A stretch of 63,567 nucleotides of DNA, taken from positions 1 to 63,567 of the IMG/VR virus record IMGVR_UViG_3300036783_000072; one strand, written 5' to 3'. Positions 364 through 60,564 of the stretch are shown here, one piece after another. Position numbers and translations under genes: made by a program. Numbering within the stretch: the stretch's first letter is position 1; each line of letters starts with the position of its first letter. The notes below the pieces were generated by a model. That model was not told where the DNA came from. It did not search any database and worked only from the letters and a program-made list of their open reading frames with translations. Origin of the DNA: a virus. Taxonomy: Duplodnaviria > Caudoviricetes.

Positions 364-940
364 TAGTTTAACCAGAGAGTGATTCCTTAGTGAGTCACTC
401 TTCCTTTAACGTAATAGAGTGTCGTTGCTTAGCGTATAACACTGTACCCCGGGAACACACTACCCGGAAAAAAGCAGCGCGGAGTACTCGTCGAAACCCG
501 GGGGCATTAGGGTGCTTGCCAGTTCAAACACATGTATTCTTGCATCATGTTCCATAGGTGTTACCCCCGGAATCTGCCTAGGAGGCAAAGGCAGCTACGT
601 ACCAGGGTGTGGATACAAAAATACATAGCACATGGACAGACGCTTCGCTAACAACATGATCATACGCTTGCACAGGTGGATAGCATACACATTACTAAAC
701 AGCCGCACACTATGTAACAACATACAGAGACTTACGCTTGACTAGGTGGATAAGACACCACTGAAACAACATGAGACTGTAACCATGCGAGCGGCGACTA
801 TGCTTCGCGTACACCCACACCTGGTACGTCAAAGATGGCAGAAACTGACATACCAACGAGTTGGTAACTCAGCATTCGCAGACAAACAAAACACGGGTGT
901 ATCTCGAAAGACCAGCCTAGCCCTGTAAAAATAGCCAAAC

Positions 941-972
941 AAAAACCCGAAGGAACGGCGAACCTCCGGGTT
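941..972 (-). terminator. Intrinsic terminator after SASP gene
   Basis: Minus strand AACCCGGAGG-loop-CCTTCGGGTT followed by T run. Confidence 0.75.
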
Positions 973-981
973 AATCCTTAC

Positions 982-1344
982 TTAACTAAACATTTGACCG
1001 CTATTCGGCGCATCATCGACAGTCCCTGAAGCATGCGGTGTTGTGTTTCCATTGTTGGAAACTTGACGCACTTCATCCTTCGGTGGCATTACTTCTTCTG
1101 GCATTAATCTCTCTTCCCCTGCTTTATGTCTCTGCATGATCTGATATTGCCCGGCCGCCGTTATCCTACGGACCATTTCTCCACCAATCTGCCCTACTTG
1201 CAGTGTTGTTAGGTTCTTGAAGTTACCATCTTTGTGGATTAAATGATCTAGGCCTAAATCACTTGCAATCTCCATCTTGAATGCTTCCATTGCCGGTTCA
1301 GCTCCATGAACTAAAACCTGATGTCTTCCGCCTCGTCTTGGCAT
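982..1344 (-). CDS. Alpha/beta-type small acid-soluble spore protein (SASP) with C-terminal extension
   Basis: LVHGAEPAMEAFKMEIASDLGL and GQIGGEMVRR match the two conserved SASP helices, including the EIASE-like GPR site; AGGAGG RBS. Confidence 0.85.
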   Translation of the reverse strand: MPRRGGRHQVLVHGAEPAMEAFKMEIASDLGLDHLIHKDGNFKNLTTLQVGQIGGEMVRRITAAGQYQIMQRHKAGEERLMPEEVMPPKDEVRQVSNNGNTTPHASGTVDDAPNSGQMFS

Positions 1345-1399
1345 GCTTATTCCTCCTGTGTAGAAAAGTTGTATAAACTAAAGATTTTAGCTTATAATA

Positions 1400-1430
1400 T
1401 ATTATGACCCTAAACGCAATAAATTATTAC
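1400..1430 (-). promoter_or_regulatory. Candidate sporulation-sigma (SigF/SigG-like) promoter for SASP
   Basis: Minus strand GTAATA-N15-GGTCATAATA (equivalently TAATA-N18-CATAATA). Confidence 0.5.
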
Positions 1431-1525
1431 GAGATTCTAAAAATAGTTTACGAGTTTACCTAATTAGACAAAGACACTTTCGTTGATTCAACTTACAGGA
1501 ATTTTGAAAATAAAGTCTCTCCAAG

Positions 1526-1565
1526 GTTCAATTCAGATTCAAAATGTATAATATATAAATATAAG
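1526..1565 (+). promoter_or_regulatory. Class-B phage promoter (1 of 6) upstream of the packaging/structural operon
   Basis: GTTCAA-N17-TAATATATAAATATAAG, same 40-bp layout as five other copies. Confidence 0.75.
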
Positions 1566-11096: not shown

Positions 11097-11458
11097 TGTC
11101 AGAACAGTTATACGTAGTTCGTAATGCATTCAAAGCGAGCGGCGTGCTTTATCCAGCAGGTCTTCTTCTAACTGAAGAGGACCTACACGGGATAAAGTTA
11201 TTTAAGATCCGCTTGAATGAAGGAACAGTTCGCCCCGTTCCTACGACGGAGCAAGAACTTGACTCATTATGTAACTATTTTAGTTCAAGAACAAATCTTG
11301 ATCTTAAACAGCAACTAGTTGACTATAGGGAGAAAATCGTCGCGGCCACCCAAGTAGCTACGCCTCCGGCGCCAGACAACCCCACCCCTGGTACGAACGT
11401 TGTGAAACCTTTGTCACAGACAAAAGTTGCCAAAACTACAACTACTGTTAAGAAGTAG
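11096..11458 (+). CDS. Hypothetical head-associated protein
   Basis: Translationally coupled to the capsid gene. Confidence 0.55.
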   Translation: MSEQLYVVRNAFKASGVLYPAGLLLTEEDLHGIKLFKIRLNEGTVRPVPTTEQELDSLCNYFSSRTNLDLKQQLVDYREKIVAATQVATPPAPDNPTPGTNVVKPLSQTKVAKTTTTVKK

Positions 11459-18471: not shown

Positions 18472-20274
18472 ATGATAGAAACAAGTGAAGCTTTTGCTAG
18501 AAAGATTGAGGCTTCAGTCCGTAGAAGTAGGGCTATCGTCCTACTGGACTTTCTACCTGACGTAATACATAAACCTAGTATTACAACTACTTCAGAAAAA
18601 GAAGGTTATCCGGTGGGAGGCCTTTTGCAAGGACGATTAAGTTTAGATGAATCCAATTCAGTTGGGGAATATATCCCCGCAAGTAATAGAGGTACTTTTA
18701 ATGGTTGGCGAAGTGCTGAATCATCTAACCCATTAGCTCAATTTGACACTCCTCCAGTAATCGAAATAACCTACGAAGAGGAGATTGAATCAAAACATGT
18801 TTGGCTTGTAAGTTCTGCCCTTGAATATCTGGTAGACTTCAAGGTTACTATTACCTCAGAAGTAGGAGAGGCAATAGTATTAGATGTAACAGATAACCAA
18901 CAAGCTATTTGGTCTCATGTTTCTGTAGAAGCTATGAAGATCAAAACAATTAGGTTAGAAGTACTGAAAAACAATATTGAGGGAAAAGATGCATTAATCA
19001 TTAACTTCGGTGCTGTTAAGGAGTTAGTGTTAACCGACGCTGAACTTGTAGATTATGATGTACTGGAAGAGGTTACTTATAATGAAGCATTACCTTATGG
19101 TGGTGTTAGTTCGAATGAATACACCTTTGCAGTAGACAATCTTTCATATATGTTTACACCCGCTAATGACAAAGGACCATTATTTGGGCTCCTCGCACCA
19201 GGTGTGGGTGTTAAAAGCTTTTATGGCTTAGAGATAGAACCTGAAGTATTTGAATATGTTCCTTTAGGCGTTTATTTCGTATCTGAATGGAATGCTCCGA
19301 GTCAGGGAGTTCAAGCAACTATAACTTCTTATGACCTACTGTTTGACTTGCAGGAAGAAAGTGTTCCTATGTTACGCATGCAAGAGAACACGACAATAGC
19401 AGAGCTACTACTTGCCTTGTTCGAAGGTTTAGGACTTGCAAGAGAGCAGTACGAAGTGGATAGCAATATCAATGATAGAATTCCATATGGCTTCATACCT
19501 GAAGGTAATGTAGGTGCCGCCTTAGCACCCCTATGTGAAGCTGGGATCTGTCGAGTGTGTGTCAATCGTTTCGGGGTAGTAAGAGCTACAAGAGGGATTC
19601 CTACAAAAGAGGCAGTGCTTACCTGGGATGACGTCAACCAAGTAATGGAGATTGAGAACCCTGAGAAGTTTAACGCTATCTACGGGAAAGTTACGGTAGC
19701 CGTTAATATCCCAAGTTTACGAAGAACATCGGACTTAGCTACTATCAATGAGATAGAGGTTAACAGTGGTGATACATTCTTCGAAAGAGCTTCTTATTCT
19801 AAGGCACCTGTACTATCGATAGATTCAGTATCTGTCCGAGGGGGTACAGGAACAAGAACGAAGGAAATTGCATACGGAACAAACAATATAGATATTACCT
19901 TGGAAAATGGCTCTAAGAAAAGTGAAACTGTTGGGGTATTTGTGCAAGGTGTTTATTGTAGTTTTGTATCGCGGGAAGTAAGTGGTTTAACTCCAGGAGC
20001 AACTTCAAAGAAAGTATTACCTATTAAGAACCAATTGATACAGACTGAGATACATGCAATGAAATTAATCCAAGCTATTGCGCCTGCCGTCGCAGATTCA
20101 TTTGCCTACTTTGAACTAGTAACTCGAGGAGATCCAAGGGTAGAAGTTGGTGACGTACTTAAGATAAAAGCGCCGTCAGCTAATATACCGGACCAATACA
20201 TTGAAGTATATCGGGCATCACATTCTTACGATGGTGCAATTGAAGGTCGGATCGTTGGAAGGAGGTTATTGTAA
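18472..20274 (+). CDS. Tail tip/baseplate hub protein
   Basis: EYVPLGVYFV and RGDPRVEVGD motifs; synteny. Confidence 0.7.
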   Translation: MIETSEAFARKIEASVRRSRAIVLLDFLPDVIHKPSITTTSEKEGYPVGGLLQGRLSLDESNSVGEYIPASNRGTFNGWRSAESSNPLAQFDTPPVIEITYEEEIESKHVWLVSSALEYLVDFKVTITSEVGEAIVLDVTDNQQAIWSHVSVEAMKIKTIRLEVLKNNIEGKDALIINFGAVKELVLTDAELVDYDVLEEVTYNEALPYGGVSSNEYTFAVDNLSYMFTPANDKGPLFGLLAPGVGVKSFYGLEIEPEVFEYVPLGVYFVSEWNAPSQGVQATITSYDLLFDLQEESVPMLRMQENTTIAELLLALFEGLGLAREQYEVDSNINDRIPYGFIPEGNVGAALAPLCEAGICRVCVNRFGVVRATRGIPTKEAVLTWDDVNQVMEIENPEKFNAIYGKVTVAVNIPSLRRTSDLATINEIEVNSGDTFFERASYSKAPVLSIDSVSVRGGTGTRTKEIAYGTNNIDITLENGSKKSETVGVFVQGVYCSFVSREVSGLTPGATSKKVLPIKNQLIQTEIHAMKLIQAIAPAVADSFAYFELVTRGDPRVEVGDVLKIKAPSANIPDQYIEVYRASHSYDGAIEGRIVGRRLL

Positions 20275-20666: not shown

Positions 20667-20712
20667 CTTCGCACCCACACCCTGGTACGCCGCGTAGAAA
20701 GGAGGAACTTCC

Positions 20713-28394: not shown

Positions 28395-28724
28395 TTAAAG
28401 TACCCCACCCTGGTACGCCGCATCGAACTTCTCTTGCGGAAGATATAACGTCTTGCGTACTATCTCGTGAGGGGTGAAACCATGACGTTTACAATGCATG
28501 TCTAAAAGATTATGATAACCTCCAGCAGCCTCAACCTGCTCCATAGTGAATGCAAAATCTAATAAACCCCCTTCACCATCACTATAGGTGTGATGATAAA
28601 GACCGTCCCGCGAACTATCAACAATAACCTCAATATACATTTCAGGAGCCAAGAACGAAGTATCCAAGTTCTTGACTATTTCCTGACTACGATAATCCAA
28701 AAAATACCTATCCACATCTATCAC
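28395..28724 (-). CDS. Hypothetical protein
   Basis: ORF in operon downstream of the polymerase. Confidence 0.6.
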   Translation of the reverse strand: MIDVDRYFLDYRSQEIVKNLDTSFLAPEMYIEVIVDSSRDGLYHHTYSDGEGGLLDFAFTMEQVEAAGGYHNLLDMHCKRHGFTPHEIVRKTLYLPQEKFDAAYQGGVL

Positions 28725-32270: not shown

Positions 32271-32338
32271 ACTCTCTCCCCATCCCTTAATTAAATACCC
32301 CAACCCCGGTTTCGTACCAGGTTGGGGTGATACTGAAA

Positions 32339-35708: not shown

Positions 35709-35717
35709 GCTTTTAAA

Positions 35718-37347: not shown

Positions 37348-37434
37348 GTTAATTCCTCCTCAAATGGGTTTTGCCTCGCGGCCATAAAGAAATGCTTGCA
37401 GACCAACCACACCCTGGTACGCAAGCCAATAGTT

Positions 37435-40430: not shown

Positions 40431-41800
40431 AGATCTTTGTATTCTTCTGGTAATATAACGTTTAGGATTGAATTAGCGTCTAGCGTCATCTCTTCAACTA
40501 GTGATCCAATAGCAGCTCCCTCTTTGTCCTTGTCTGGCCATGGGATACCTACGCGCCACGGTTCGATGTTGCCATCTTCCTTACGTGTTCTAGGTTCGAA
40601 GTTATCACTCAACCAACGTTGTGCTTCGACTTCCTTCCCATCATCCTGAAGAAGGCATGCATCTCTAAATGGACAATCCCAAATACAATCTCTTGTAGGA
40701 TTCGGGAACAAATATAAGTTCGGATCCGCCATCATAGTAGCTTCAGCTAGAATATGACGGTAAGTTGATTTCTTCTGACCTTGTGATCTGGTAACGAAGT
40801 CCCATCGAATGAACTTGTCCCCTTCGGGTGTTTCCTGCGAAGCTAGTACATTTAAAAAGTCTACTAGTTTTGCTGGCGCCTTACTTACTTCCTTATAATC
40901 GCGAATAATCTCATTACGCAACTGTTGGTACGTTGTCTTTTGTTTCTTATCAACTGACAAAGAACCATTGTTCAAACGTCTCGGTGGCTTAATGAGTTCC
41001 TTCGTAAGTTGAACATAAACGAAACCATGAATAGGTCGTCCGAACCACTGTTCAGCCGCCCACATATAGGCACTGATCTGATCATCGGTATCTAGCTTAT
41101 TCGTATCAGCGCTCTTGGCTGTTTTCCAGTCCATAATCCACCATCGACCGAATTTATCTTGAACAATACGGTCTAACGTTCCATGATAATACAAAGGTAC
41201 TTCTTTGATATATTGTTTAGGTGAATCATGCCAAACAGTTATCTCACCGTTGTGTAGATACTCGCCCTTATCATCAGTCAATATCTGCATATCCTTTGTA
41301 ACATTTACGATATCGCCTGTTTCCATATCGGCCCAAACTTTAATGCCAAGATCTAACATAAATGATTCCTCAATTAAAGGCTTAGCATCTTCTGTGCCGG
41401 GGGGTACTATGTTCTTATCTTTATCCCACCATACTGTTTCGAATTGCATATCTGCATTACGTGGCATATACCACTCCAAGAAATACTCTAACATACCAAT
41501 ACCGAGGAAATAATGCTCATCGGCACCCATAGGTCTTTCTGATGCTGGGAATGCCGCATAGTAAGCCTGAAATGCTTTCACAGGACTACCAAACTTATTC
41601 TCCCCGAAAAAGTCTTCCATTGCAAAATGGATCGCGGAACCAAACCAGAAATGAATATTCGTCTCTGTTCCTTTACGTTGCAGGTTCTGTCTCATAGAAG
41701 ACTGATAACCCCACTTACGCATACAACGCCTAAACACCCTACGCCCACTGGTACGTATGGTATAATGACTCACTGGTTGTTCTGTAACTTGCAGTGTCAT
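40427..41800 (-). CDS. PD-(D/E)XK exonuclease (Cas4/AddB-like, Fe-S)
   Basis: N-term C, GSAIH, GTLD..DWKT, Q..AY, C-term CIWDCPFRDAC. Confidence 0.85.
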   Translation of the reverse strand: MTLQVTEQPVSHYTIRTSGRRVFRRCMRKWGYQSSMRQNLQRKGTETNIHFWFGSAIHFAMEDFFGENKFGSPVKAFQAYYAAFPASERPMGADEHYFLGIGMLEYFLEWYMPRNADMQFETVWWDKDKNIVPPGTEDAKPLIEESFMLDLGIKVWADMETGDIVNVTKDMQILTDDKGEYLHNGEITVWHDSPKQYIKEVPLYYHGTLDRIVQDKFGRWWIMDWKTAKSADTNKLDTDDQISAYMWAAEQWFGRPIHGFVYVQLTKELIKPPRRLNNGSLSVDKKQKTTYQQLRNEIIRDYKEVSKAPAKLVDFLNVLASQETPEGDKFIRWDFVTRSQGQKKSTYRHILAEATMMADPNLYLFPNPTRDCIWDCPFRDACLLQDDGKEVEAQRWLSDNFEPRTRKEDGNIEPWRVGIPWPDKDKEGAAIGSLVEEMTLDANSILNVILPEEYKDL

Positions 41801-43408: not shown

Positions 43409-44875
43409 CTATCTTCTCTTCTTAATCATTTGGGCGAAACGTTCCTCACTTGACAGAATCAAATCGGCTCCCGATTGCTTGTCATTTAGAATTCTAATAA
43501 CGTCATCTTCAACGGTATCTTTATGGAGCATATAATAACAGTTGACTGTTCTTGTTTGCCCTATACGATACAATCGGTCTTCGGCTTGGGCGTTTTTGTT
43601 GAAATCATATTCATAACCAATGAAGAAGGCTGTTGCCGCACAAGTAGCATGGAACGATGCACCGGACTTAATAACACATATTAATACCCGAGCACCGCGA
43701 CCATTCTGGAAGCCTTGCCATTGAGCCCCGAACTCTTCGGGAGTCAAGCCCCCAGTGATTGTATGGATCTTGATACCTCCATACTTTTCACGTAAAGCCT
43801 CCTGGATGTATGGTACTGCTTTTCTAAATGGGGTAAAGATAACAAAAGGATCTTTCTCAAGTACCAAGTCCTCTGACATTTCCAACATTGTTTCAATTGC
43901 AGCCCCTTTAGTCTTCAGGCCAAGTACTTGCGGACATGCTAATAACTGACGTTGCCTAACGGCTAAGGTTAACAAACTAGGTGTCATTATTAGTTCACCA
44001 TTAGCCGTTAGGGTAAACATCTCTTCGGTAAGCTCTTTGTAAACTCTTGCTTGTTCTGTATCCATAAGTACCGGAATTGCTTGACGAACCTTCTCAGGCA
44101 TGTCGTGTAAGTAGTCAATCTTCTTCAGGATACTTGAATGACTCCGTAACATCTGTCTAAATGCTGGAACATTCTTAGGATTCCGTTCTATACCCTTGCC
44201 AAATCCCGAATCAATAGTAACACAGTGTGTATTTACGTATTTCCAGTAACTATCGAACTTTCTAGATTCTATGATACTCAAAGGCCCAAAAAAGTCGACT
44301 ACTCCTCTTCTATAAGGTGTTCCTGTAAGTAAGAATACGACTGGTGTTTCCTTAGCTAACTGCGTGAACGTTCCGTATGTCTTCGTCTTATGGTTAAACA
44401 AACCACCTAATTGAATCTCATCAGCCACAAGGGCTCCAAGCTTCATCTTCGTACCAGGTGGTGGGATTATTTCAGCTTTAGTCTTTTCGTCCGCTTTCAC
44501 TATCCCAAATCGCTGTCCTAATTCATGGCTCAAGCTAAAATTGGTAATAATAAAAGGAGCTCCTGTGGTAGCGAACTCCTTCCATATTTTACCTCTCTGT
44601 TTAGGCGTACCTACATAGATTAAAGCTTTTGCATTGAACCATTTTTCAAGTTCTAGTTGAAGAACAAACATTGCGGACTTACTACACACTATCATACAAG
44701 GGAAGGCTTCAAGCTCCATGACAGCTAATAATGTTACAAGGCTCTTACCCATCCCCATATCCATGTAGTTCAACCAGCGGCGCGCGCGGAGCATATCATC
44801 CACAACACCCACCTGGTACGGACGCAACATGTCCCTAACTTGTTGCAATTGCTCAGTCGATGTAGTTGGTACCAC
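43409..44875 (-). CDS. SNF2-like superfamily 2 helicase
   Basis: LRPYQ, DMGMGKS, ADEIQ, LTGTP, QAEDRLYRIGQ. Confidence 0.9.
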   Translation of the reverse strand: MVPTTSTEQLQQVRDMLRPYQVGVVDDMLRARRWLNYMDMGMGKSLVTLLAVMELEAFPCMIVCSKSAMFVLQLELEKWFNAKALIYVGTPKQRGKIWKEFATTGAPFIITNFSLSHELGQRFGIVKADEKTKAEIIPPPGTKMKLGALVADEIQLGGLFNHKTKTYGTFTQLAKETPVVFLLTGTPYRRGVVDFFGPLSIIESRKFDSYWKYVNTHCVTIDSGFGKGIERNPKNVPAFRQMLRSHSSILKKIDYLHDMPEKVRQAIPVLMDTEQARVYKELTEEMFTLTANGELIMTPSLLTLAVRQRQLLACPQVLGLKTKGAAIETMLEMSEDLVLEKDPFVIFTPFRKAVPYIQEALREKYGGIKIHTITGGLTPEEFGAQWQGFQNGRGARVLICVIKSGASFHATCAATAFFIGYEYDFNKNAQAEDRLYRIGQTRTVNCYYMLHKDTVEDDVIRILNDKQSGADLILSSEERFAQMIKKRR

Positions 44876-49332: not shown

Positions 49333-50106
49333 TTATTCTTCAAACTCCGTAGGGTGAGCATCTATGTATCGCTCAGCCAAAGCAAGTATACCATCTACTT
49401 GATCTGCTTTAAGTTCACGGGCATCTTTCTCACGGGTCAAGTTGCAATTAGCATGTGTAGACGCAATGTTGGTAAAGCAATCTAGGCCTCCCTGAACTAC
49501 AGGAACAACATGGTCCAGATGCAAACTCTTACCTGAAATATCTTCGATGGGTTTAGTACATAGATAGCAGATAGGTGCTCCATGCCCAGCAAACTCCCCA
49601 TCACGGCGGATGATCTGTTCTCTCGTATACGGAATGCCTGCGTTCTCTGCTAGAGACTTATGTCGCTTAGCATGTGCTCTTGCCATCACCTTTTTGCCCT
49701 TCTTAGAGCTTACGTAAGCCTTATGCTTTGCCGTGAGTTCTTCTTTGTTCTCCTGATAGTACTTACGTGCTGCTGCCTGTTTGGCTTCCTTGTTCTCTTG
49801 GTAGTACTTCTTGTGATTACGAGAGTTCTTGGTCTTCTTGTACGACTTTTGTGCAGTCTGTTTCTGACATTCCTTACAAGAGCCCGACGTATTAGTCTTA
49901 CTATCTTTGTTCTTGTTGAACAGATAGAACTTCAGTGCTTCTCCACATTTACCACAGCGTTTGTAGCCTTCTGGGATTTCGCTATCTTTTTCCACAGGTC
50001 CGATGTTGTCCTTGGCTTTAAGGTAGGCGTCTGCACTAGCTTTGTCAAACTGCAAGCCTGCATCTTCTGCACGTTGCAACATCGTTTCCATTATTAAAAC
50101 TTCCAT
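49333..50106 (-). CDS. HNH endonuclease with N-terminal Zn finger
   Basis: CGKC..CKEC; CYLC..DHVVP..GG..N....H..CN. Confidence 0.85.
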   Translation of the reverse strand: MEVLIMETMLQRAEDAGLQFDKASADAYLKAKDNIGPVEKDSEIPEGYKRCGKCGEALKFYLFNKNKDSKTNTSGSCKECQKQTAQKSYKKTKNSRNHKKYYQENKEAKQAAARKYYQENKEELTAKHKAYVSSKKGKKVMARAHAKRHKSLAENAGIPYTREQIIRRDGEFAGHGAPICYLCTKPIEDISGKSLHLDHVVPVVQGGLDCFTNIASTHANCNLTREKDARELKADQVDGILALAERYIDAHPTEFEE

Positions 50107-50196: not shown

Positions 50197-51051
50197 TTAG
50201 TCGTTATAAACTGAAGTATCTTCAGTCGATTCTACTGCTAATGAACCTTCTTCAACTTCCTCTTCGACTTTAACCTCAAGTTCAAGTAATTGTTCGATTA
50301 AAAGGTTGAATGATTCTGTATCAACTACTAATTCGCCCAATTTCTTGATGCGGTTGATACCGTCTGTGTACTTGTCTTCGTCAGACTTAAGTACTTTTAA
50401 TGCACTCCATACAACCGGGTAATCAACTTCAAGTTCTTTCGCAATATCGGCACGTGATTTACCTTCTGCGAATAATACGCGGATGTACTCACTACGAGAA
50501 AGTGTTTCGCCGTTATACTCAATTTCATGACGTGCAGATGCCCCAGCAACTTCTTTTGTGATTCCGTAAACAACACCGTAAGAAACGTCTAATTTCTTAG
50601 CAACGTCACCACGAGATACGCCTGCTTCAACTTGCTCTTTGATCCAAGTGTTACGATCAACTTCAACAACTTCGCCTTCGTAAGCTTCTTCGCCGATTAG
50701 GTAGCCAGCGGATTCATCACCAGTTACTACATCACCTTCAGGTGTTACAAGGATCTTAACTTGTGCTGCTGAACGACCACGTGTAGCAGGTTCTGCTTCG
50801 TTAACCATGTTAACTGTAGCACCATAAACTGTGCGGTAGTTGATATCGAATTGATCTGCAATTTCTTTGCGAGATAAGTTATTGTCCGTGAATTGGTGAC
50901 GGATGAATTCTGATTTAGATACTTCAGTTCCATCTGCAAGTGTCCATACACGCGTATCCTTTGCTTCTGCTGCTGCTTCCTCTGTTGACGGTGCTGCAGT
51001 CACATCTACTACTTCTGTTCCTTCTACTTGCTCGAATTGTTCGTTTGACAT
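50197..51051 (-). CDS. Acidic protein with three tandem HTH repeats
   Basis: SRKEIADQFDINYRTVY, SRGDVAKKLDVSYGVVY, SRADIAKELEVDYPVVW. Confidence 0.75.
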   Translation of the reverse strand: MSNEQFEQVEGTEVVDVTAAPSTEEAAAEAKDTRVWTLADGTEVSKSEFIRHQFTDNNLSRKEIADQFDINYRTVYGATVNMVNEAEPATRGRSAAQVKILVTPEGDVVTGDESAGYLIGEEAYEGEVVEVDRNTWIKEQVEAGVSRGDVAKKLDVSYGVVYGITKEVAGASARHEIEYNGETLSRSEYIRVLFAEGKSRADIAKELEVDYPVVWSALKVLKSDEDKYTDGINRIKKLGELVVDTESFNLLIEQLLELEVKVEEEVEEGSLAVESTEDTSVYND

Positions 51052-51155: not shown

Positions 51156-51454
51156 CAAATAATGAAAAATAATTGAAAAAGATTTTGATCTGGTTTCCTT
51201 GGCGAAAGTGAACGTAATTCGCACCTAGGTTCGCGGCTCAAGCCATACCCCACCCTGGTACGGAAGCCTCGCAGCAAGCTGTGTTATAAACGGCTTTGCC
51301 ACTATTTGGGAAAGCCCCGCGAACAACTTAGGCATCTCTCCGCGAATACATTTATGGGACAAGATAACCACAGCTAAAAAATTGCCATATATAAATAAGG
51401 AAGAGATTCAGCATTTTTAGGGGATTATCTCCAAAAAGAAATTTTCATTATTTG

Positions 51455-51494
51455 TTTCATTCTAAAATCAATTTGTATATTATATAAATATAAG
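51455..51494 (+). promoter_or_regulatory. Class-B phage promoter (divergent from 51116..51155)
   Basis: TTTCAT-N17-TATTATATAAATATAAG. Confidence 0.8.
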
Positions 51495-51515
51495 CTATTT
51501 AATAGCTGGTAGGAG

Positions 51516-51710
51516 GTGAATATGTTCATGGAATCGAAAGTGCAACCAGAAGACATTGAAGAGTTGGGTACAAAAATGTTAGGGGCTCAAGTTGAAGAAG
51601 ACGTATATCGGAAGTTTAAAGCAGTTGCAGCAATGCGCGGAGAAATGTTAAAGGATGCTGTAGCTCATGCAGCACACATGTACATCGGAGCAGGAGGGGA
51701 AAATAAATGA
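51516..51710 (+). CDS. Ribbon-helix-helix DNA-binding protein
   Basis: KMLGAQV strand, EEDVYRKFKAVAA helix, G, LKDAV..YI helix. Confidence 0.6.
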   Translation: MNMFMESKVQPEDIEELGTKMLGAQVEEDVYRKFKAVAAMRGEMLKDAVAHAAHMYIGAGGENK

Positions 51711-52741
51711 CCACATTAGATAGTATTGCAGAATTTGCTGCTACTGTAGGGATTATGAAGCCTAACGCTCCTAAAAAGGGTGATAAGAAGGCAGAAGCTA
51801 AGTTGGATGCTTTGTTAGACAGTCCAGATTATATCATTGAAGAGAAGGTGGATGGCTGTCGTTATAAATTAGTAGGTGAACGTTTCTTCAGTAAGGATAA
51901 TAAGGAAAAGACATTGAATTTTCCGCATGTCGTTAAGTTCCTAAAGCAATTACGTATGAAGAACCTTATTCTTGATGGGGAAATGCATTATCCAGGCAAG
52001 ACAAGTCAATATGCAGTATCGGTTACTGGTGCTAATACAGATAACGCTATAGCCTTCCAAGAACAGAATGGATATATTCATTATACTATTTATGACATCT
52101 TACGCACACCTAAATCATCATGGCTTATCAAGAATACGTACTTAGAAAGACGTAAGTTACTTGAACACTTCTATGAGAAGTTCGTTATGGGAACGGAGAT
52201 GGAAGAATTTATTCATATTTCCGAGATGCGTCATGAAGGTAAGCGTGAATACGTAGAAGATCTTATTGCTCGTGGATTAGAGGGTGGTGTACTTAAGCAA
52301 AAGACAAGTCTTTACATGATGGGTAAAAGTCCTATGTGGCAATGGATGAAGATTAAAAAAGCTGATTCAACGGACCTAGTGATTATGGGTTTCTTACCAG
52401 GTAAGAAGGATTATGAAGGTAAGGAATTGTCATCCTGGAAGTACTGGGAAGATGATCCAGTTACTAACGAGCCTATTCCAGTAACAAAAGCTTATGCTAT
52501 GGGCTGGATTGGTCGAATTATATTAGGGGCTTATGTAGATGGTACGCTTACAAAGATTTGTACCGCAGCAGGCTTCAAGGAGTCATTGCAAGAAGACATG
52601 ACAAACAATCCGGATAGTTATATCGGAAGAGTTGCTCGTGTTGACTTCATGGAATTAACAACTGATGGATTTCCTCGCCATCCAACCTTTAAGGATATGC
52701 ATGAAGATAAAATGCCGGAGGAATGTACTTGGGAGTTTTAA
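51707..52741 (+). CDS. ATP-dependent DNA ligase
   Basis: EKVDG.R, LDGEM, YD, EGGVLK, WMKIK, RHP.F. Confidence 0.9.
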   Translation: MTTLDSIAEFAATVGIMKPNAPKKGDKKAEAKLDALLDSPDYIIEEKVDGCRYKLVGERFFSKDNKEKTLNFPHVVKFLKQLRMKNLILDGEMHYPGKTSQYAVSVTGANTDNAIAFQEQNGYIHYTIYDILRTPKSSWLIKNTYLERRKLLEHFYEKFVMGTEMEEFIHISEMRHEGKREYVEDLIARGLEGGVLKQKTSLYMMGKSPMWQWMKIKKADSTDLVIMGFLPGKKDYEGKELSSWKYWEDDPVTNEPIPVTKAYAMGWIGRIILGAYVDGTLTKICTAAGFKESLQEDMTNNPDSYIGRVARVDFMELTTDGFPRHPTFKDMHEDKMPEECTWEF

Positions 52742-52761: not shown

Positions 52762-55386
52762 GTGTTAGATAGAAATGAGCAATTAAGACGGATGAATGAT
52801 GCAATTGATGAATATGTAGGTTTAGGCTTACCCATCATTCCTTTGTGTTCGCATGATCATGAGGGTTACTCGAAGAGACATATAGAAACGTGTAACCAAG
52901 CAGGTAAGATACCTCTAATCAAAGGTTGGCAAACGCATCAGGAAACAAACAAAGCACAGATAGGTTCTTGGAAACGAGAATTCAAAAATATCAACATCGG
53001 TCTTCCGTTAGGTCATATCTCAGGTTACATAGGTGTTGACGTTGATGGTCTAGCGGGTGAAGATATCTTATTGGAATTATCCGATGGGGAAATTCCAGAA
53101 ACTTGGGAATATGTTACAGGTGCAGGACGTCGTTTAATGTACACTATTCCAATCGGCATGAAAACTAAGAAGTCTGTCAATACAGGAGCAGGAGTTCATG
53201 AAGAATGTTCTATTCTTGCTTTCGGACAGCAAACAGTATTACCTCCATCAATACATCATACAGGACGTTTGTATGAGTGGTTAGCGGATAGATCTCCAAG
53301 TGAGATAGATTGTGCGCCTGCTCCAGGGTGGTTGTTAGCTTTAGTAAAAGAAGATGAGGTGGCTCCTGCACGAGGCACTGTAGATTTGAATAGCAGTGAT
53401 CCTGTCTTTGTGGTAGAAAAGAAGAAAGAAATAAATCCTATTCTCGTTACTAAGGATTCGATTCCATTGGAGTTTATCGACTATTTCGATATTCCATTAG
53501 ATACCGAAAAGCCTTCAGATGATTATCAAGGACAGAAAGCAGTAGCACAGGAAAAGAAAAAGAAAGCTGGTATGTCTGAAGAAGAGTTAATGCAAGTCTT
53601 CTCAGAGGGTGGTCGTGATAATCAGATGGCCAAAGTTATTGGTCACTTCTGTGCAAAGCATCGTTCATTAGGTAAGAACTATGTAATGCTCATGGCTAAA
53701 GTACACAATCAAAACTTCATGGTACCTCCGTTATCCGATGCTGAGATAGAAGTTAAGGTAAATCACTTCTGGGAAAATGAAGAAATGAAATCAGCCGCTT
53801 ATAAAACGCAACGCCTTGATGGAGGGGAAAATAAAGTATTTGCACCTTCCCAAGTGGCTCAAGTAGTTATCAATCAACTAGAAGAGAAAGGTTATCTTCT
53901 TAAGGCTGATAAAACTAGTGGCTTCTTATGGATGACTAAAGCAGACGAAGGTCCTTGGATGTCCTATGATTTACAAGGTTCCGCTGATGGTTTTGCACTA
54001 CACATTTCGGATGCATTGGAGAATCCATCATTAGGAGGTAATCCAGCTTGGGGCGTGCGACGTAACTTTGGTGAGGTTGCAGCAGCCATTCTTCGTCATC
54101 TACGAGCAGCTGGGCGTTTCTGGACTATTGTAGATACAGAAGCCAATACACAGTCTCTTAAGGATCATAAGTATATTCCATTAGCGAAAGGTCGTTTATT
54201 AGAATGGAGAACTGGACAATTACATCCATGGATTCCAGATTCTAATATTACGTACACATTACCTATTGAATATGATCCTAACGCAAAATGTCCAGAATGG
54301 GAACGTCGTATGAATCAATGGTTACCTGATAAGGGAGCACAGAACATCATTCAAGAGTTTATAGGTTATTCTTTTGTTCCTTATATGGGATTTGAGAAAG
54401 CTCTAATGATTCAGGGTGAGGGAGCAAACGGTAAGTCAATGCTTCTTGAAACTATCTCAGGTATGATGGGTTCATCATTCTGTTCGTCTATTGGTATGAA
54501 ACATCTTTTCCAACGATTTGGAGCTTATCGACTTTTAGGTAAGGGATTGAATATAGTAAATGAAGCTGGTGCTGATTACTTAAGAAATGACACAGCAGAT
54601 GACTTCAAGAACATGGTATCCGGTGGAGCAATGACGGCAGATATTAAGAACAAAGAACCTATCACGTTCAATAACACTGCTAAGTTTATCTTCTCAGCCA
54701 ATCATGATATCAAGACGAGTGATAAGTCAGCTGGTTGGCTTCGTCGTATGATTCTTGTTCCATTTGATCAGGATTTCCGTAATAGTAAAGAATCCAAGGC
54801 AGATATGATGGATGCATTAGCTACGGAATACTCCGGTATCTTCAACTGGGCAATAAAGGGTCTTCATCGTCTTCTAGAGCAGGGTGCTTTTAGTGAGTCG
54901 CAATCTGTTAAGGACAAGATGAAGTCATATGAAACACAAAATGATATCGCTGCCGACTTCTTCGAACATTGCCTAGAGATTCGTCCTAAGTTCGCTGTTG
55001 ATGGGGAAGCATATGAAATGGGTGTTGCTAGCTCAGCAGTTAACGATTTATTCAAACAGTTTGCCGCATATAGAAGTTCTGACCTGAAGAAGGTAAACGA
55101 AAAGATCAAACAGTACTTGGAAAAGACACATGGACTGAAAGCATTACGTAAGGATGTTAAATATCTTACAATGACCGATGCGAAGAAAACATCTGGATGG
55201 ATGTCTCTTAAAGTGCATGTAACAGATCCTGATTTCCTGGAGTGGTTATTAGAAACTGGAAATATTATGGAATTGTCCCAAGCTAAGTTACGAAACTATG
55301 TTGGTGATCGCTTAGAGGAACTTAATGGGGAAGACAGTCCTCCAACACCTCCAAGAACAATCAACATGGAAACAATAGCACAGTAA
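52762..55386 (+). CDS. PrimPol (AEP) - PriCT - D5/SF3 helicase fusion
   Basis: GK.P, NIG, VDVD, VLPPS.H; EGGRDN; QEFIGY, GEGANGKS, SAN, RR..LVPF. Confidence 0.9.
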   Translation: MLDRNEQLRRMNDAIDEYVGLGLPIIPLCSHDHEGYSKRHIETCNQAGKIPLIKGWQTHQETNKAQIGSWKREFKNINIGLPLGHISGYIGVDVDGLAGEDILLELSDGEIPETWEYVTGAGRRLMYTIPIGMKTKKSVNTGAGVHEECSILAFGQQTVLPPSIHHTGRLYEWLADRSPSEIDCAPAPGWLLALVKEDEVAPARGTVDLNSSDPVFVVEKKKEINPILVTKDSIPLEFIDYFDIPLDTEKPSDDYQGQKAVAQEKKKKAGMSEEELMQVFSEGGRDNQMAKVIGHFCAKHRSLGKNYVMLMAKVHNQNFMVPPLSDAEIEVKVNHFWENEEMKSAAYKTQRLDGGENKVFAPSQVAQVVINQLEEKGYLLKADKTSGFLWMTKADEGPWMSYDLQGSADGFALHISDALENPSLGGNPAWGVRRNFGEVAAAILRHLRAAGRFWTIVDTEANTQSLKDHKYIPLAKGRLLEWRTGQLHPWIPDSNITYTLPIEYDPNAKCPEWERRMNQWLPDKGAQNIIQEFIGYSFVPYMGFEKALMIQGEGANGKSMLLETISGMMGSSFCSSIGMKHLFQRFGAYRLLGKGLNIVNEAGADYLRNDTADDFKNMVSGGAMTADIKNKEPITFNNTAKFIFSANHDIKTSDKSAGWLRRMILVPFDQDFRNSKESKADMMDALATEYSGIFNWAIKGLHRLLEQGAFSESQSVKDKMKSYETQNDIAADFFEHCLEIRPKFAVDGEAYEMGVASSAVNDLFKQFAAYRSSDLKKVNEKIKQYLEKTHGLKALRKDVKYLTMTDAKKTSGWMSLKVHVTDPDFLEWLLETGNIMELSQAKLRNYVGDRLEELNGEDSPPTPPRTINMETIAQ

Positions 55387-57233: not shown

Positions 57234-57554
57234 TTGGCGGCTTCATTTATTACCATAAAAAGAACATTAAAGAGAGACGTGAGTACTTCGACCAGAAGAA
57301 GTCGCGTCTTGATAAACTCTTTAAAGGAGAGGATTAACTTGACTCGACTTAAACTGATTCAATCTTTGTTGGGTATTTTCATTGCCCTTCTTTTTGTTTC
57401 TTTGTTATTGTCTATAGATTTGATGTTCACGGATAATTTCTCAAAAGGTTATGTCATATTCCTAATCGGTTCGAACATCTTCTTACTTTCATATTGGATT
57501 CGTATCTTATTACATCTTTTAATGAAGGAGCGTGCGAATAAACATGGAGCCTAA
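57234..57554 (+). CDS. Membrane protein (probable start at TTG ~57339)
   Basis: Two hydrophobic helices; GGAGAGG RBS. Confidence 0.5.
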   Translation: MAASFITIKRTLKRDVSTSTRRSRVLINSLKERINLTRLKLIQSLLGIFIALLFVSLLLSIDLMFTDNFSKGYVIFLIGSNIFLLSYWIRILLHLLMKERANKHGA

Positions 57555-57765
57555 AACACACTGGCACTATTATACGGATGTCGTAGGTGATTGGTATACA
57601 GCTCGAAGAGCATACTTCAAGGTCGAAGTTAATTCGGAAACAAGAAGTGCAGTTAGGGATCCCATAGAAATAGGAGTGGAGGAGTTCACTAATGTCTGGC
57701 AGCAAGCTATTGGAAATACTGGCGCCAAAGCCGAAGGTAACGAAGAGTCTTTCAGGCTTGTATGA
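57532..57765 (+). CDS. Hypothetical protein
   Basis: AAGGAG RBS. Confidence 0.5.
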   Translation: MRINMEPKTHWHYYTDVVGDWYTARRAYFKVEVNSETRSAVRDPIEIGVEEFTNVWQQAIGNTGAKAEGNEESFRLV

Positions 57766-57924
57766 AATGAAAAGGGAATTTGTCGGTGGTTGGCATTTCC
57801 CGTTCTATGCATATTATGCTCGTAATGTTAAGTATACACAGACAGGTGCTAAGGTATTTACCGGTGATTGGTTCAAGATTACGTACAACGAATACATTCA
57901 AAAAAGAATAGGAGTGGATTATTG

Positions 57925-59427
57925 ATGAAAAGAGAAATTATTGTTCGGGCAGTTTCAGAAGCAGCTCAGGTAGGTGACTTTGTTGTCTTTACAGATCCTA
58001 ATCCGGGTCATGGTATTACTAAGGATTGTATCTACGGTCCGATCACAGAGCATCCCGATGATTCCGCGTACCAGGTGGTGGGTGATGGTGGCGAAGCCAA
58101 AGATGTATGGTCTTCAGCTGGCAATAGAACCCCAACAAACACTTGCATTTATTATCCGGTAGCTGTAATACAGTATGAAGCCCTTGCTAAAGAGTTGGCC
58201 AAAAGATCTAACAGTGAGCTGCAACATGGAAAAGGATCTGGATACCCTAGACCGCAAACATTCCATCTATACCTGGATTCAGATCGTCCTGGTGCTATTA
58301 AGCATGGTTTTGCTACGGCTGAGAGCATTCGCGGGCTTTTATCGAAACATAAGGACTTACAAGAAGACCATATTGTACAGTCCGCCTTGGATATGGAAGA
58401 TGCACAGTTAGATCTGCATGTAGCCTTTAAGGATATCTGTAGCTTTGTGGAGGAACAGTCAGAGAGGGATCTTCTCCCTAATAAGACGATTATGGTAGAA
58501 AAGCTGAGTACGCCTAATCATCAGAATATCAAGGTTACTTTGGCTATTGAGTCTGAAGAAATGGAGTTAACTGATAAGGAGAAACGTGCATTACGTAAAC
58601 ACTTTAGTTTAGGTGAAGCTTATGGTTCTAGTCTTGGTGGGTCTGAGTTAGCTGTTTCAGAGGAATCTAAAGGACATATACGTTTTGACCAACATCAGGG
58701 CATAGTTGATCCTTTATATCTTGAACATCCTGTACATGAAGTAGTTAGACATGTACGCCTTGAACAACCTACTTGGCCTCATGATGCAATTGAACATGTA
58801 GGTCCTGCTAAGCTATATGATCCGGCGACGAACGAGGAGATTAAGTTCGAAGGATTTAAACTTCCTAAACAGCAACAAGCGACAGATAGGGCGGCTTTCG
58901 ATAAAGATAAGGACACTAGTGCTTCGCTACCCCACACTGGTACGGAGACGAAACCTGAGAAATATCACTATATGCATCACACTGTAGGTTCCGTAACTAT
59001 TAAGAACGTTCCTTTTCGTGATGCTTCGGTATTTGACACGGTTTCTCATCCGTATATGGACGAAGCGACAAAGAGGAACGTAGATGCAATTATTGCTCAC
59101 TGTAAGGAACGTGGATTCGTAGAATGGGAATTCGGCGAAGGTATAAGATATCTACATCAGAGAGGCATGAACATATTTGTTTCGTCACCAACCAGATTTG
59201 AGGATATAGTGCGTAATGATCGTCATCTACTCTCTGTTCCGTTCGATCTTAAAGGTAAAGGACTTAAGAAGGATCCTTATATCTCGGGACTAGTGAAGGA
59301 TTGCTTTGCTTACATGGAATTGTACAATGTAGTATCTGTAGCATTCCCTAATGCATTAACACACTTAGCTGTATTGCAAGCCGCGCAAATGCAGTTACAC
59401 AAGAACGATGTAGGTACTAAGGAATGA
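57925..59427 (+). CDS. Large hypothetical protein
   Basis: ~500-aa ORF with AGGAG RBS; no family recognised. Confidence 0.65.
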   Translation: MKREIIVRAVSEAAQVGDFVVFTDPNPGHGITKDCIYGPITEHPDDSAYQVVGDGGEAKDVWSSAGNRTPTNTCIYYPVAVIQYEALAKELAKRSNSELQHGKGSGYPRPQTFHLYLDSDRPGAIKHGFATAESIRGLLSKHKDLQEDHIVQSALDMEDAQLDLHVAFKDICSFVEEQSERDLLPNKTIMVEKLSTPNHQNIKVTLAIESEEMELTDKEKRALRKHFSLGEAYGSSLGGSELAVSEESKGHIRFDQHQGIVDPLYLEHPVHEVVRHVRLEQPTWPHDAIEHVGPAKLYDPATNEEIKFEGFKLPKQQQATDRAAFDKDKDTSASLPHTGTETKPEKYHYMHHTVGSVTIKNVPFRDASVFDTVSHPYMDEATKRNVDAIIAHCKERGFVEWEFGEGIRYLHQRGMNIFVSSPTRFEDIVRNDRHLLSVPFDLKGKGLKKDPYISGLVKDCFAYMELYNVVSVAFPNALTHLAVLQAAQMQLHKNDVGTKE

Positions 59428-59687
59428 ACAAAGTATTCCCACAGTTCGAGTCGGCCTATTTCAAAGTCACGTGGAGGGATGAGCTCATTCGTTGGGCTCC
59501 TGCTACTCCCTTAGCCATACGTAATATTAAAGTCGGAGATGTCATACAGTTTGAGTTCCTGCTTAATGCAACGGACTTAAGAAAGAACTTACGCATGACC
59601 AATCATACACAAGGTAATAGCTGTGTCATACCTGCTGGCAACTTCCACAGGATGTTAGCACCATACGATTGGAGAAAGCATTCATAA
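59424..59687 (+). CDS. Hypothetical protein
   Basis: ATGA coupling. Confidence 0.55.
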   Translation: MNKVFPQFESAYFKVTWRDELIRWAPATPLAIRNIKVGDVIQFEFLLNATDLRKNLRMTNHTQGNSCVIPAGNFHRMLAPYDWRKHS

Positions 59688-60060
59688 GGAGGAAAGCAGA
59701 TGGTAGGATATATCAAGAGGAACAAAGCAACGATGTTATTGTACATGCAAGTAGTAGCAATGTGTGTATTAGCAAAGATCATAATGGGTTAGTCAGAACG
59801 GAAGAGGACACCATAACAGACAGATTGTCTCGCGTAGGATCGTACCAGTGGTGGGTATGGTTAGCGGAGCACAGTGTCTAGTTATGGTGTCTTTTATTTA
59901 CATGTCTGCGGGCTTCTTGGTTGTAAGCGCAGCAATAGGTTCTCTATGTTCCTTCAGAGGTCAAGGCTTCTGCACTGCGTGCAATGGCTGGTTAGTTATC
60001 CACCGCGTTAAATTACATACATACAGCAACATGTTTAACAATTGGCTTCTTTGCGTGGTT

Positions 60061-60423
60061 GGTCTTGGTCTTGATATTTTAATATCTTGGTCTTGTGTCT
60101 CCGCTTACTCTAAGTAAGGGGAGATAAGTTTAAGACCATCAAGACCTTCAAGACCAAGAAATTTTAATAAAGTAGGATATAGGTCAGAATCACTACCTAC
60201 TAGTCTCTCCAGAGACAATATGACACAGATAATACCACCGACCCAATAGGGAGTCCCAATATAGTATCTTCTCTATAGGCATGGAGAGACTCTCTCCTAC
60301 ATAAGCCATTATACCGATATGCTTTTCTACTCCCTAGTCTATATATAGAGATCAATAAAAATCGCAGTTGGTCTTGGGTTTTCTGGTCTTTTTGGTCCAA
60401 GAACCCCTTTGTTGGATGGTCTT
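60061..60423. repeat. Cluster of GGTCTT/AAGACC hexamers
   Basis: Nine exact copies, three of them at a 9-bp period (60132, 60141, 60150). Confidence 0.7.
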
Positions 60424-60564
60424 GACAGTAAAAGTGTTTGGTCCAAGGCTCGGGTCTAATAGCTCGTCACAACAACACGGAGCCAGTCAAACAATGGGAG
60501 TTAATCAGTGCGGCACGAGACCAAACCCTCCACAAGCCCCCCCCCCTGGTACGCATCACTTGCA

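Follow-up and report, generated by a model that had tools for sequence, protein, structure and literature searches.

Known primase sites and a candidate priming word

The primase of phage T7 recognises 5'-(G/T)(G/T)GTC-3', as described in PMC2910064, where the 3' C is reported to be left uncopied and the primers to be made from ATP and CTP only. Because such a primer is built from two nucleotides, the bases 5' of the fixed element are restricted to two letters. Here we describe a 16-nt, one-sided word in the DNA of an uncultured soil phage (63,567 bases; Duplodnaviria; Caudoviricetes), which comprises the whole of IMG/VR virus record IMGVR_UViG_3300036783_000072 and is called the window below. 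The word consists of a C/A tract followed by the core CTGGTACG and occurs about once per 4 kb. It is real, selected and strand-specific; its copies on one strand lie at even intervals, close pairs of copies have a set orientation, and the word goes together with the phage's replication module. An earlier note on this DNA had proposed that it is a priming site of the PrimPol-helicase encoded at 52762..55386 on the plus strand.

Words that recur within a phage genome are known from other settings. The alpha protein of satellite phage P4 uses its C-terminal domain to contact short repeats at ori and at another site far away; these are direct repeats clustered at two loci (ori and crr), whereas the window has dispersed single copies. 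The stoperators of Cluster A mycobacteriophages and the start-associated sequences of Cluster K are asymmetric 13-nt words that occur genome-wide in tens of copies and keep one orientation to transcription, and a subset of the Cluster K sequences has an extra inverted repeat upstream. The nicks in phage T5 DNA are generally described as lying on one strand. As PMC3517423 describes them, the localised nicks of T5, the phiKMV-like phages and Pseudomonas phage tf number about 4-14 per genome, have an asymmetric consensus of 7-19 nt and no known purpose, and are found in phages that encode a ligase; those of tf are all in the top strand and those of phiKMV-like phages in the non-coding strand.

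Signals read by primases of the archaeo-eukaryotic (AEP) type are also described. The PrimPols of pRN1 (ORF904) and phage NrS-1 hold their site with a helix bundle and begin synthesis at the base immediately 5' of that site; the pRN1 site is given as 5'-GTG-3' and that of NrS-1 as the 8-mer 5'-TTTGGTTA-3', although NrS-1 also accepts plain GTG (PMC8718748). The IncQ plasmid RSF1010 encodes the AEP-fold primase RepB'. Its iteron origin has two 40-nt single-strand initiation (ssi) signals, one per strand, in which the start site lies 3' of a hairpin, and the 11-12-nt DNA primers made there are reported to need only ligation (PMC8567376). The very stable DNA mini-hairpin d(GCGAAGC) is found at the phage G4 origin, variants of it occur in RSF1010 ssiA and in the N4 promoters, and hairpins of this type are reported at phage and plasmid priming sites (PMC13037366).

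The word in the window

An exact count gives 17 copies of CTGGTACG, 11 on the plus strand and six on the minus strand, the same total as in the manual scan of the earlier note. The expectation from 100 dinucleotide shuffles is 1.13 (sd 1.0, maximum 4) and none of the shuffles reached 17; the reversed pattern occurs once. Plus-strand cores are at 821, 11388, 20682, 28410, 33854, 37414, 41748, 44813, 51255, 58937 and 60546, and minus-strand cores at 598, 25414, 32313, 44450, 58067 and 59841. The minus-strand copies lie where they had been placed, but the plus-strand positions given previously mark the starts of the tracts, not of the cores.

The seven bases 5' of the core (-7 to -1) are C or A only in 16 of the 17 copies, again as claimed. 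Tracts of this composition account for only 0.96% of the genome's 7-mers, and the probability of at least 16 C/A-only tracts in 17 is 8e-32. The lone exception, copy 41748, has one G. C occupies position -7 in 16 of the 17 copies, and likewise position -6. Information content is zero directly 3' of the core, which gives the word a sharp 3' edge. Two minus-strand near-matches were also found as reported: CCCACAC-CTGGTGCG at 19194..19208, with one core mismatch, and CCCCACC-CTGGTAGT at 5727, with two.

The orientation of the word is independent of transcription, as had been suggested. When the copies are read against the strand blocks of the open reading frames (ORFs), six lie on the coding strand and eight on the opposite one; copies 598, 821 and 51255, where the direction of transcription is ambiguous, are outside this tally. 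The word thus differs from the stoperators, and neither the fixed orientation to transcription nor the promoter location of an operator is seen, since six of the 17 copies are deep within genes. Ten copies lie within called ORFs. It had been claimed that these occupy different frames and strands; they do occur in both senses, but the frames are not free, as all four sense copies read P-x-P-G-T and four of the six antisense copies read (A/P)YQ(V/G)(V/G)(G/V). Copies deep in ORFs are fewer than the 72% of the genome that such DNA represents (6 of 17; p = 0.0015), the remaining 11 being in or near non-coding DNA. The excess over the shuffled expectation, the C/A rule and the retention of positions in relatives bear out the view that selection acts on the DNA, and the word sits where the cost to protein is least.

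Spacing and paired copies

Copies on the majority strand are evenly spaced. For the plus strand of the window the coefficient of variation (CV) of the spacing is 0.47 (p = 0.007), and for the minus strand of the collinear relative G001, which is the equivalent strand, it is 0.32 (p = 0.0009). In a third genome, G011, the values are 0.47 and 0.22 (p = 0.065 and 0.015). The split between plus and minus strands is 11 to 6 in the window, 6 to 9 in G001 and 4 to 6 in G011.

Copies on opposite strands also form close pairs, nearly all of one arrangement. Among minus-then-plus neighbours, 10 of 24 are less than 1 kb apart, compared with 2 of 46 in the other three arrangements (Fisher p = 2e-4). These statistics omit G003, L215 and L222, which are near-duplicates of G001, L214 and L221, as well as L217-L219 (one copy each) and the N-containing duplicated end of G002; except in G011, only copies with a tract of at least 6/7 C/A were counted. 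(At that contig end of G002, L205 positions 12307-12446, two copies with identical flanks lie 132 nt apart with an N in one flank; this is probably an assembly repeat, and one of the two was omitted.) In the minus-then-plus pairs the tracts face each other and the cores point outward. The earlier statement that each minus copy is followed by a plus copy holds for all six in the window, but it is no strict rule in G001, where the order is -+--++---++--+-.

Two of the window pairs flank origin-like DNA, in agreement with the proposed likeness to RSF1010 ssiA and ssiB (PMC8567376). Pair 59841(-)/60546(+) brackets a non-coding region (60047..60447) in which iteron-like TTGGTCTTG / CAAGACCAA repeats, in both orientations, surround the AT-rich GATATTTTAATA. 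Pair 598(-)/821(+) brackets non-coding DNA (630..752) with three direct repeats of about 21 nt (ACA..ACGCTT..) and two 20-nt repeats (TACGCTTG..AGGTGGATA). Most copies, by contrast, are solitary and lie outside such repeat-rich regions, and no iteron-like or direct repeats were found between the members of the G001 pair 41923/42212. L214 and L215 each carry a pair that is separated by 75 bp and forms one long palindrome through its GCTTCGC modules, which are described next.

Optional modules upstream of the tract

For the window and its relatives together, elements less than 70 nt from a locus end or containing N were removed and copies identical over 48 nt were merged (87 to 86); a C/A-only tract is present in 77 of the 86 distinct elements. 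The motif extends beyond the tract and core described earlier: optional modules lie farther upstream (GCTTCGC and CGCGGAAC), and the core that is kept family-wide is only TGGTAC. GCTTCGC is found in 25 of the 77 elements (0.35 expected) and GCTNCGC in 32, starting mostly 16-25 nt upstream of the core. A further-upstream module, (T)CGCGG(A/C)A, is represented by CGCGG in 30 of 77 elements (1.9 expected) and by CGCGGAAC in 11 (0.11 expected); AGCGG, which is part of this CGCGG/AGCGG module, occurs in 18 of 77 upstream regions (2.45 expected).

GCTTCGC is the complement of d(GCGAAGC), and the two upstream modules can pair with each other: CGCGGA pairs with the TCCGCG of GCTCCGC forms and, through a G-T pair, with TTCGCG elsewhere. 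For GCTNCGC arms the mean duplex energy is -7.16, compared with -5.69 +/- 0.25 for shuffles and -6.67 for a reversed-sequence control. When all 77 elements are folded, z is -0.59 on the word strand.

Relatives and the link to the replication module

The 50,697 GenBank phage records contain no close relative of the window by DNA, and searches of cultured and GenBank phages with the PrimPol, capsid, PolA and HNH proteins gave distant matches only. An initial PrimPol pattern scan of IMG/VR had no match. The first relatives (G001-G003) came from an IMG/VR scan for two exact instances of the word and so are biased towards having it, having been found by the word itself; later ones came from protein searches. 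G001 (64,993 bases) is collinear with the window, with about 68% DNA identity in conserved genes, and has 15 copies, and seven of the 17 window copies are at orthologous positions in it. G003 is close to G001 and has seven copies in 36.6 kb, and G002, a 12.5-kb fragment with structural genes about 50-63% identical, has six. In the protein-based scan, metagenome loci with a PrimPol 46-57% identical to that of the window carry the word in 11 of 11 cases, with 1-8 copies each.

The word, found in every relative that has the replication module, belongs to that module and not to the structural module. Enrichment was seen in just one of 18 large IMG/VR records that encode a related capsid (46-63% identity): G011 has 10 copies in 59 kb, and the other 17, whose replication genes are different, hold 0-2 copies. 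G011 is likewise the only one of the 18 with the PrimPol, with the triple helix-turn-helix (HTH) gene and with a close PolA (the PolA matches in seven of the others are weak), and it shares the whole replication module with the window. Word and PrimPol are thus both present in one record and both absent from 17, with the whole module co-varying.

An alignment of 13 PrimPols, used as query, retrieved 18 more distant full-length relatives (26-37% identical). Module synteny is kept in 16 of them, and of these 16 loci 15 have the triple-HTH gene and 14 the HNH gene. In loci of about 20 kb, CTGGTACG itself occurs 10 times in L321, seven in L312, five in L320 and four in each of L308 and L309. Elsewhere the word takes other forms: ATGGTACG in L310 and L311, (C/A)AAC-TGGTAC in L317 and L313, and a T/C-rich tract followed by TGGTAC in L326, L316 and L318; in G011 the tract alphabet is A/C/T. 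The alphabet varies by lineage (C/A, C/T or A/C/T) but remains free of G.

A composition-only expectation had overstated the enrichment of TGGTAC, and enrichment of this hexamer as such was rejected with a second-order Markov model (44 against 42.5 expected in the window, 45 against 54.1 in G001). The conclusion on distant relatives rests instead on the tract. A G-free 8-mer upstream of TGGTAC occurs at least as often as expected in each of the 23 sequences, significantly so (p < 0.05) in 16; in L326 the tract is G-free at 17 of 25 TGGTAC (p = 1e-9). Control counts in the family sequences, for G-free 8-mers downstream and C-free 8-mers upstream, gave no signal. The signal is weak in L314, which has no detectable triple-HTH or HNH gene: TGGTAC occurs 13 times (7.9 expected) and six of the 13 have a G-free tract (p = 0.12, not significant).

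Two loci, L331 and L335, encode a PrimPol 28-29% identical to that of the window and share nothing else of the module. As examples of a PrimPol without the word they are uninformative, because GTAC itself is avoided there (10 and 9 occurrences in 14-20 kb, compared with 38-108 in the other loci counted), in what looks like restriction-site avoidance. Frequent 8-mers of these two loci are AGCAGGTA (nine times) and ACCGAGGA (13 times). Other repeated words noted among the relatives are ATTCTCTA (22 times in 22 kb of L313), TTGTTTAT (18 times in L312) and TGTCGTAT (10 times in L316). In chromosomal loci of Paenibacillus oryzisoli (L306) and Paenibacillus sp. PvR008 (L307), the N-terminus of the window enzyme has a PrimPol-domain counterpart of 46-48% identity that stands without the rest of the phage module. 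This may point to the host group and to a primase domain that has been exchanged with other mobile elements.

The PrimPol-helicase as candidate reader

The 874-aa product of 52762..55386 has the domains that had been assigned to it. It comprises a PrimPol domain (residues 1-198), a linker, a helix bundle/PriCT-1 domain (273-349), D5_N, a superfamily 3 (SF3) helicase and a C-terminal winged-helix-like domain. Pfam matches are Prim-Pol (E = 6.7e-25), PriCT_1 (21.5 bits, cut-off 21.1), D5_N and DUF5906, and the C-terminal half belongs to the P4-family primase C-terminal domain (TIGR01613; 166 bits, cut-off 108.7), a point in common with P4 alpha. In an AlphaFold model (mean pLDDT 76.9) the helical bundle lies at residues 273-349, and the nearest folds to the model are the SaPI5 primase-helicase and the PrimPol of African swine fever virus. 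A primase of the matching class is thus encoded in the genome, directly downstream of an ATP-dependent DNA ligase gene (51707..52741, plus strand) that holds the same position in the relatives covering that stretch.

The layout of the word is that of a primase site, as the earlier note had it. A fixed 3' element with a sharp edge follows a 5' stretch of restricted composition on one strand, in the window counts, in the pooled elements and in the 23 sequences. T7 sites share the fixed 3' element, the two-letter bases 5' of it, strand specificity, scattering within genes and repeated use (PMC2910064). They differ in being 5 nt long, very frequent, of G/T composition and read by a zinc-finger primase of the DnaG type, whereas the window has about 17 copies of a 16-nt word with a C/A tract (and so a G/T primer), optional upstream modules and an enzyme of the AEP/PrimPol type. 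With pRN1 and NrS-1 the system has in common a Prim-Pol domain and a helix bundle, which binds the site in those enzymes and would do so here, fused to or working with an SF3 helicase, and the NrS-1 site shares TGGT with the core; no tract rule, pairs or genome-wide spacing is reported for those enzymes. RSF1010 resembles the window in its long, complex signals on both strands of an origin with iterons and an AT-rich stretch, an arrangement that is found here at 59841/60546 and, with direct repeats, at 598/821. A mini-hairpin of the GCGAAGC kind is described for ssiA (PMC13037366). RSF1010 differs in having one pair per replicon and a leading-strand mode only, whereas the window has some 17 copies, mostly solitary, and a hairpin that is optional and weak.

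The proposal of the earlier note, that the PrimPol primes at the word, gains from the DNA-level signal, the link to the module, the site layout and the domains of the enzyme, but the data do not distinguish the PrimPol from its companions in the module, among them the triple-HTH protein and the HNH nuclease. We therefore hold only tentatively that the word is a cis-acting replication signal of the phage family's own module, and that what it most likely constitutes is a single-strand initiation site of the PrimPol-SF3 enzyme. On this proposal the template strand would be 5'-[C/A tract]-CTGGTACG-3', with the helix-bundle (PriCT-1) domain binding the fixed TGGTAC(G) element. Synthesis would begin at or beside the 5' edge of that element and copy the G-free tract; were the enzyme to act like that of NrS-1, it would begin at -1 or within the tract and not inside the core. 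The primer of about 9 nt that the earlier note proposed, pppA-G-(G/T)n, and its argument from 3'-GTC are guesses. C/A-only and C/T-only alphabets cannot self-pair, which would suit a template that must stay single-stranded. The optional hairpin or GCTTCGC module upstream may expose the site or limit primer length. The evenly spaced copies of the majority strand would prime the lagging or displaced strand of forks that move rightwards in window coordinates, and at origins, initiation on both strands would fall to the minus-then-plus pairs that flank repeat-rich non-coding DNA, the first primer of each member crossing the origin to become the opposite leading strand.

Several observations weigh against this proposal. 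Known PrimPol sites are 3-8 nt long, compared with 16 nt and additional modules here, and copies some 5.8 kb apart are widely spaced for sites that prime a lagging strand. The minority-strand copies are few and uneven, with one gap of 24.8 kb, and the spacing and pair tests are not independent, because orthologous sites recur across relatives. Support from the hairpin is modest, the reversed-sequence control standing at -6.67 beside the -7.16 of the arms, and the 16 elements of the window show no folding advantage over random windows (z = +0.08). Nor does TGGTAC by itself exceed, in the window, the Markov expectation given above. A purine start opposite -1 is not general, because the base before the core is mostly A/T in G011. 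Co-occurrence does not single out the PrimPol, because the triple-HTH, HNH, SNF2, ligase and other genes travel with it, and the Paenibacillus chromosomal loci have 3 and 2 copies per 20 kb, lacking the tract and without clear enrichment. Finally, the phage itself is known only from assembled contigs of one soil metagenome.

Other readings of the word

A second reading, possible if rather unlikely, is that the word is a duplex binding site of the triple-HTH protein (50197..51051, minus strand) and perhaps also of its two-unit HTH paralogue at 60999..61457. The protein would then label or organise the phage DNA, serve as a replication initiator or loader, or regulate transcription. Three HTH units in tandem could read an asymmetric site of about 16 bp, although the word has no internal threefold repeat, and the protein is weakly similar (NCBIfam E = 1e-4, far below cut-off) to the tandem-HTH protein Cbp1, which binds CRISPR repeats. 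The gene is within the module of nearly every word-bearing genome, and one copy of the word is always found in the divergent region beside it; on the other hand, L314, with no detectable triple-HTH gene, keeps its weak and non-significant signal. A choice of A/C over G/T could be read in the major groove, but a rule of composition with a G-free alphabet that shifts between lineages is unusual for HTH recognition. The 11 of 17 copies in or near non-coding DNA would suit a binding site, while even spacing on one strand, an orientation unrelated to neighbouring genes and deep intragenic copies with conserved positions are not expected of operators.

It is decidedly unlikely that the word is a nick site, cut late by the zinc-ribbon HNH nuclease (49333..50106, minus strand; endonuclease VII-like) and sealed by the ligase after injection. 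The sharp one-sided boundary of the word, the conserved nuclease and the ATP-dependent ligase encoded by the module all fit such a site, and outward-facing pairs could prime divergent strand-displacement synthesis from nicks. The core contains TG-GT, and zinc-ribbon HNH nickases of Firmicute phages are reported to cut xG^GT (CG^GT, SG^GT, YG^GTY) (PMC3592412); phage tf provides a precedent, with 14 nicks within a 9-nt consensus (PMC3517423). However, the tf nicks are described as clustered in one half of the genome and not evenly spaced (PMC3517423), and the nicks of tf and the phiKMV-like phages are uneven and on one strand, whereas the word, as read from genome sequence, is on both strands in the window, G001 and G011 (11:6, 9:6 and 6:4). 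Those nick sites have no composition-restricted tract. The HNH protein, moreover, matches families of the endonuclease VII type, is only about 29% identical to any cultured-phage protein and has no described nickase among its listed matches, and its gene is in the early module, not beside the terminase.

It is very improbable that the words derive from a small mobile or recombining element, as its ends or its relics. Outward-facing pairs would then behave like terminal inverted repeats, whereas a lone copy would be a solo end or a hot spot of recombination by which gene modules are shuffled. Conservation is indeed strongest at the outer end of the word and fades inwards, close pairs nearly always have their cores outward, six of the 17 copies fall within the right arm, which is variable (55.4-63.5 kb plus 0-1 kb), and the optional upstream modules could be decaying common ancestry. 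Yet the DNA between pair members is unrelated from pair to pair and varies in length (75 bp to about 1 kb), many solitary copies retain their orthologous place in conserved genes whose proteins have diverged by about 50%, the proteins scanned include no transposase, integrase or HUH nuclease, and even spacing on one strand is unexpected of such an element.

We find it hard to credit that the word directs a DNA modification such as 7-deazaguanine at a core G: queC, folE, queD and queE-like genes are present, and 17 sites (about 134 per million) fall within the range of some 50-230 modified bases per million nucleotides described for some phages (PMC6884629), but the phage DpdA targets described are only 2-3 nt long (GA, GGC; PMC10484667, PMC7544227) and not 16 nt in 17 copies, a five-gene pathway for 17 bases would be costly, and spacing, pairing and the G-free tract are all left unaccounted for. 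The word is not a short, frequent motif, and no recognisable enzyme of the DpdA or tRNA-guanine transglycosylase (TGT) family was found; the 289-aa DpdA-like candidate (31276-32145) has no Pfam, NCBIfam or Protein Data Bank (PDB) sequence support and matches only phrog_20335, of unknown function. Readings as a promoter (orientation unrelated to genes, and nothing at the word site in a sigma-70/terminator scan of 50900-51750), as an RNA element (no Rfam match at gathering scores in the whole window) and as a Chi-like site (the word is too long) were rejected.

The copies in their genomic setting

The first 127 nt of the window are identical to its last (1-127 and 63441-63567), so the record represents a complete phage genome of about 63.4 kb; its G+C content is 42%. 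The identical ends are either true terminal repeats or an assembly overlap on a circularly permuted genome. One DNA run (soil metagenome, contigs), from which the record may derive, has the phage as a single Logan contig of 63,467 nt with no differences and another start point, and no RNA run is listed as containing the window sequence. The window has no tRNA gene. Its ORFs form three blocks: head, tail and lysis genes on the plus strand (about 1.6-27.5 kb), followed by a minus-strand block (27.6-51.3 kb) and a plus-strand block (51.5 to about 60.8 kb) that together make up a module for replication and nucleotide metabolism. The capsid protein is about 44% identical to the capsids of Roseobacter phage RDJL Phi 1, Pseudomonas phage KPP23 and Arthrobacter phages. 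The module encodes PolA with an N-terminal domain like uracil-DNA glycosylase, QueC, FolE, QueD, a QueE-like protein, dUTPase, a kinase, an SSB-like DUF669 protein, a Sak4-like annealase, a PD-(D/E)XK nuclease, an SNF2 helicase and a sigma factor, in addition to the HNH nuclease, triple-HTH protein, ligase and PrimPol-helicase.

At the left end, copy 598..613 (minus; core 598-605, tract 606-613) is the left member of pair 598/821. The right member, 813..828 (plus), lies directly 3' of the stop codon of gene 982..1344, has GCTTCGC 19 nt upstream of its core and corresponds to G001 34797(-). In the structural block, copy 11380..11395 (plus) is within a 120-aa head-module ORF, the gene after the capsid, where it reads NPTPGT (orthologue G001 25292(-)); copy 20674..20689 (plus) is intergenic, with GCTTCGC 16 nt upstream of the core and a ribosome-binding site after it; and copy 25414..25429 (minus) is antisense, deep within a 773-aa tail ORF.

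Copy 28402..28417 (plus; orthologue G001 7589(-)) is downstream of the gene for the family A DNA polymerase (28727-31264, minus). This protein has an N-terminal domain of the uracil-DNA-glycosylase superfamily and a 3'-5' exonuclease domain, and its nearest cultured relatives, about 30% identical, are from phages of Weizmannia coagulans and Bacillus subtilis. Copy 32313..32328 (minus; orthologue G001 3977(+)) lies between queC and the 289-aa gene, copy 33846..33861 (plus; orthologue G001 2534(-), with a conserved flank) at the junction of the dUTPase and kinase genes, and copy 37406..37421 (plus) between small ORFs. The same stretch (32557-38908) holds the pathway for a 7-deazaguanine precursor: QueC (32557-33282; E = 2.5e-58), GTP cyclohydrolase I (34930-35601), a weak radical-SAM QueE-like protein (37638-38450) and QueD/PTPS (38450-38908), with a ThyX-like gene among them.

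Copy 41740..41755 (plus), the one whose tract has a G, is at the 5' end of the PD-(D/E)XK nuclease gene. Copy 44450..44465 (minus; orthologue G001 58180(+)) is within the SNF2 helicase gene, where it reads IPPPGT, and is the left member of a close pair with 44805..44820 (plus), near the 5' end of the same gene (363 bp); this pair is also present in L220. A phage-specific 379-aa ORF at 45184-46323 (minus; phrog_6077, function unknown) is absent from all relatives compared. The sigma factor (48325-49203, minus), which is kept in most relatives that have the module, is nearest in region 2 to the sporulation sigma factors SigK, SigG, SigF and SigE, all far below family cut-offs. Copy 51247..51262 (plus) is intergenic and lies where the triple-HTH gene and the ligase-PrimPol operon diverge, with the same place and orientation in G001, L212, L214, L216 and L220.

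In the right arm, copies 58067..58082 (minus) and 58929..58944 (plus), each with GCTTCGC upstream, form a pair 870 bp apart within a 519-aa ORF (57868-59427, plus) that has no family match and is specific to the window among the relatives compared. Copies 59841..59856 (minus) and 60538..60553 (plus) form the left and right flanks of the origin-like region, 705 bp apart. Three AT-rich words that recur genome-wide, TATAATTAAT (10 times), TATATTTATATA and TAATTAATTATA (six times each), probably represent promoter classes.

Implications for the phage family

No paper that treats CTGGTACG as a motif was found in the literature: 1,827 papers contain the 8-mer, and in the 15 matches listed it is part of primers or constructs. 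What appears to be new here is a signal like that of a primase or single-strand initiation site that is unusually long, composite and positionally conserved. A fuller picture can be drawn, although we regard it as doubtful: a widespread family of soil phages of about 60 kb, infecting spore-forming Firmicutes, may replicate from hard-wired, long start signals of the PrimPol-helicase, evenly spaced on one strand for discontinuous synthesis and bracketing origins as opposite-strand pairs, with the first 7-8 primer bases written in a lineage-specific, two-letter alphabet that cannot self-pair (template C/A here, C/T elsewhere).

To our knowledge, an origin built of two opposite-strand priming signals is known only from IncQ plasmids; if the priming proposal is true, origins in this family too would be assembled from two such signals. 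Phage AEP primases could then recognise sites of two to three times the greatest length on record, with a PrimPol specificity of about 16 nt, and the enzyme and its site could together serve for sequence-specific, primer-free DNA synthesis. If the word is instead a nick site or a site of the triple-HTH protein, it would still be a family-wide, positionally conserved genome mark without a described counterpart. Should it be a priming site, the virus would fix the starts of its discontinuous strand, about every 6 kb, so that primer sequence, fragment length and origin use would be genetically fixed viral features, and the replication direction and origins of uncultured phages would be predictable from their genomes.

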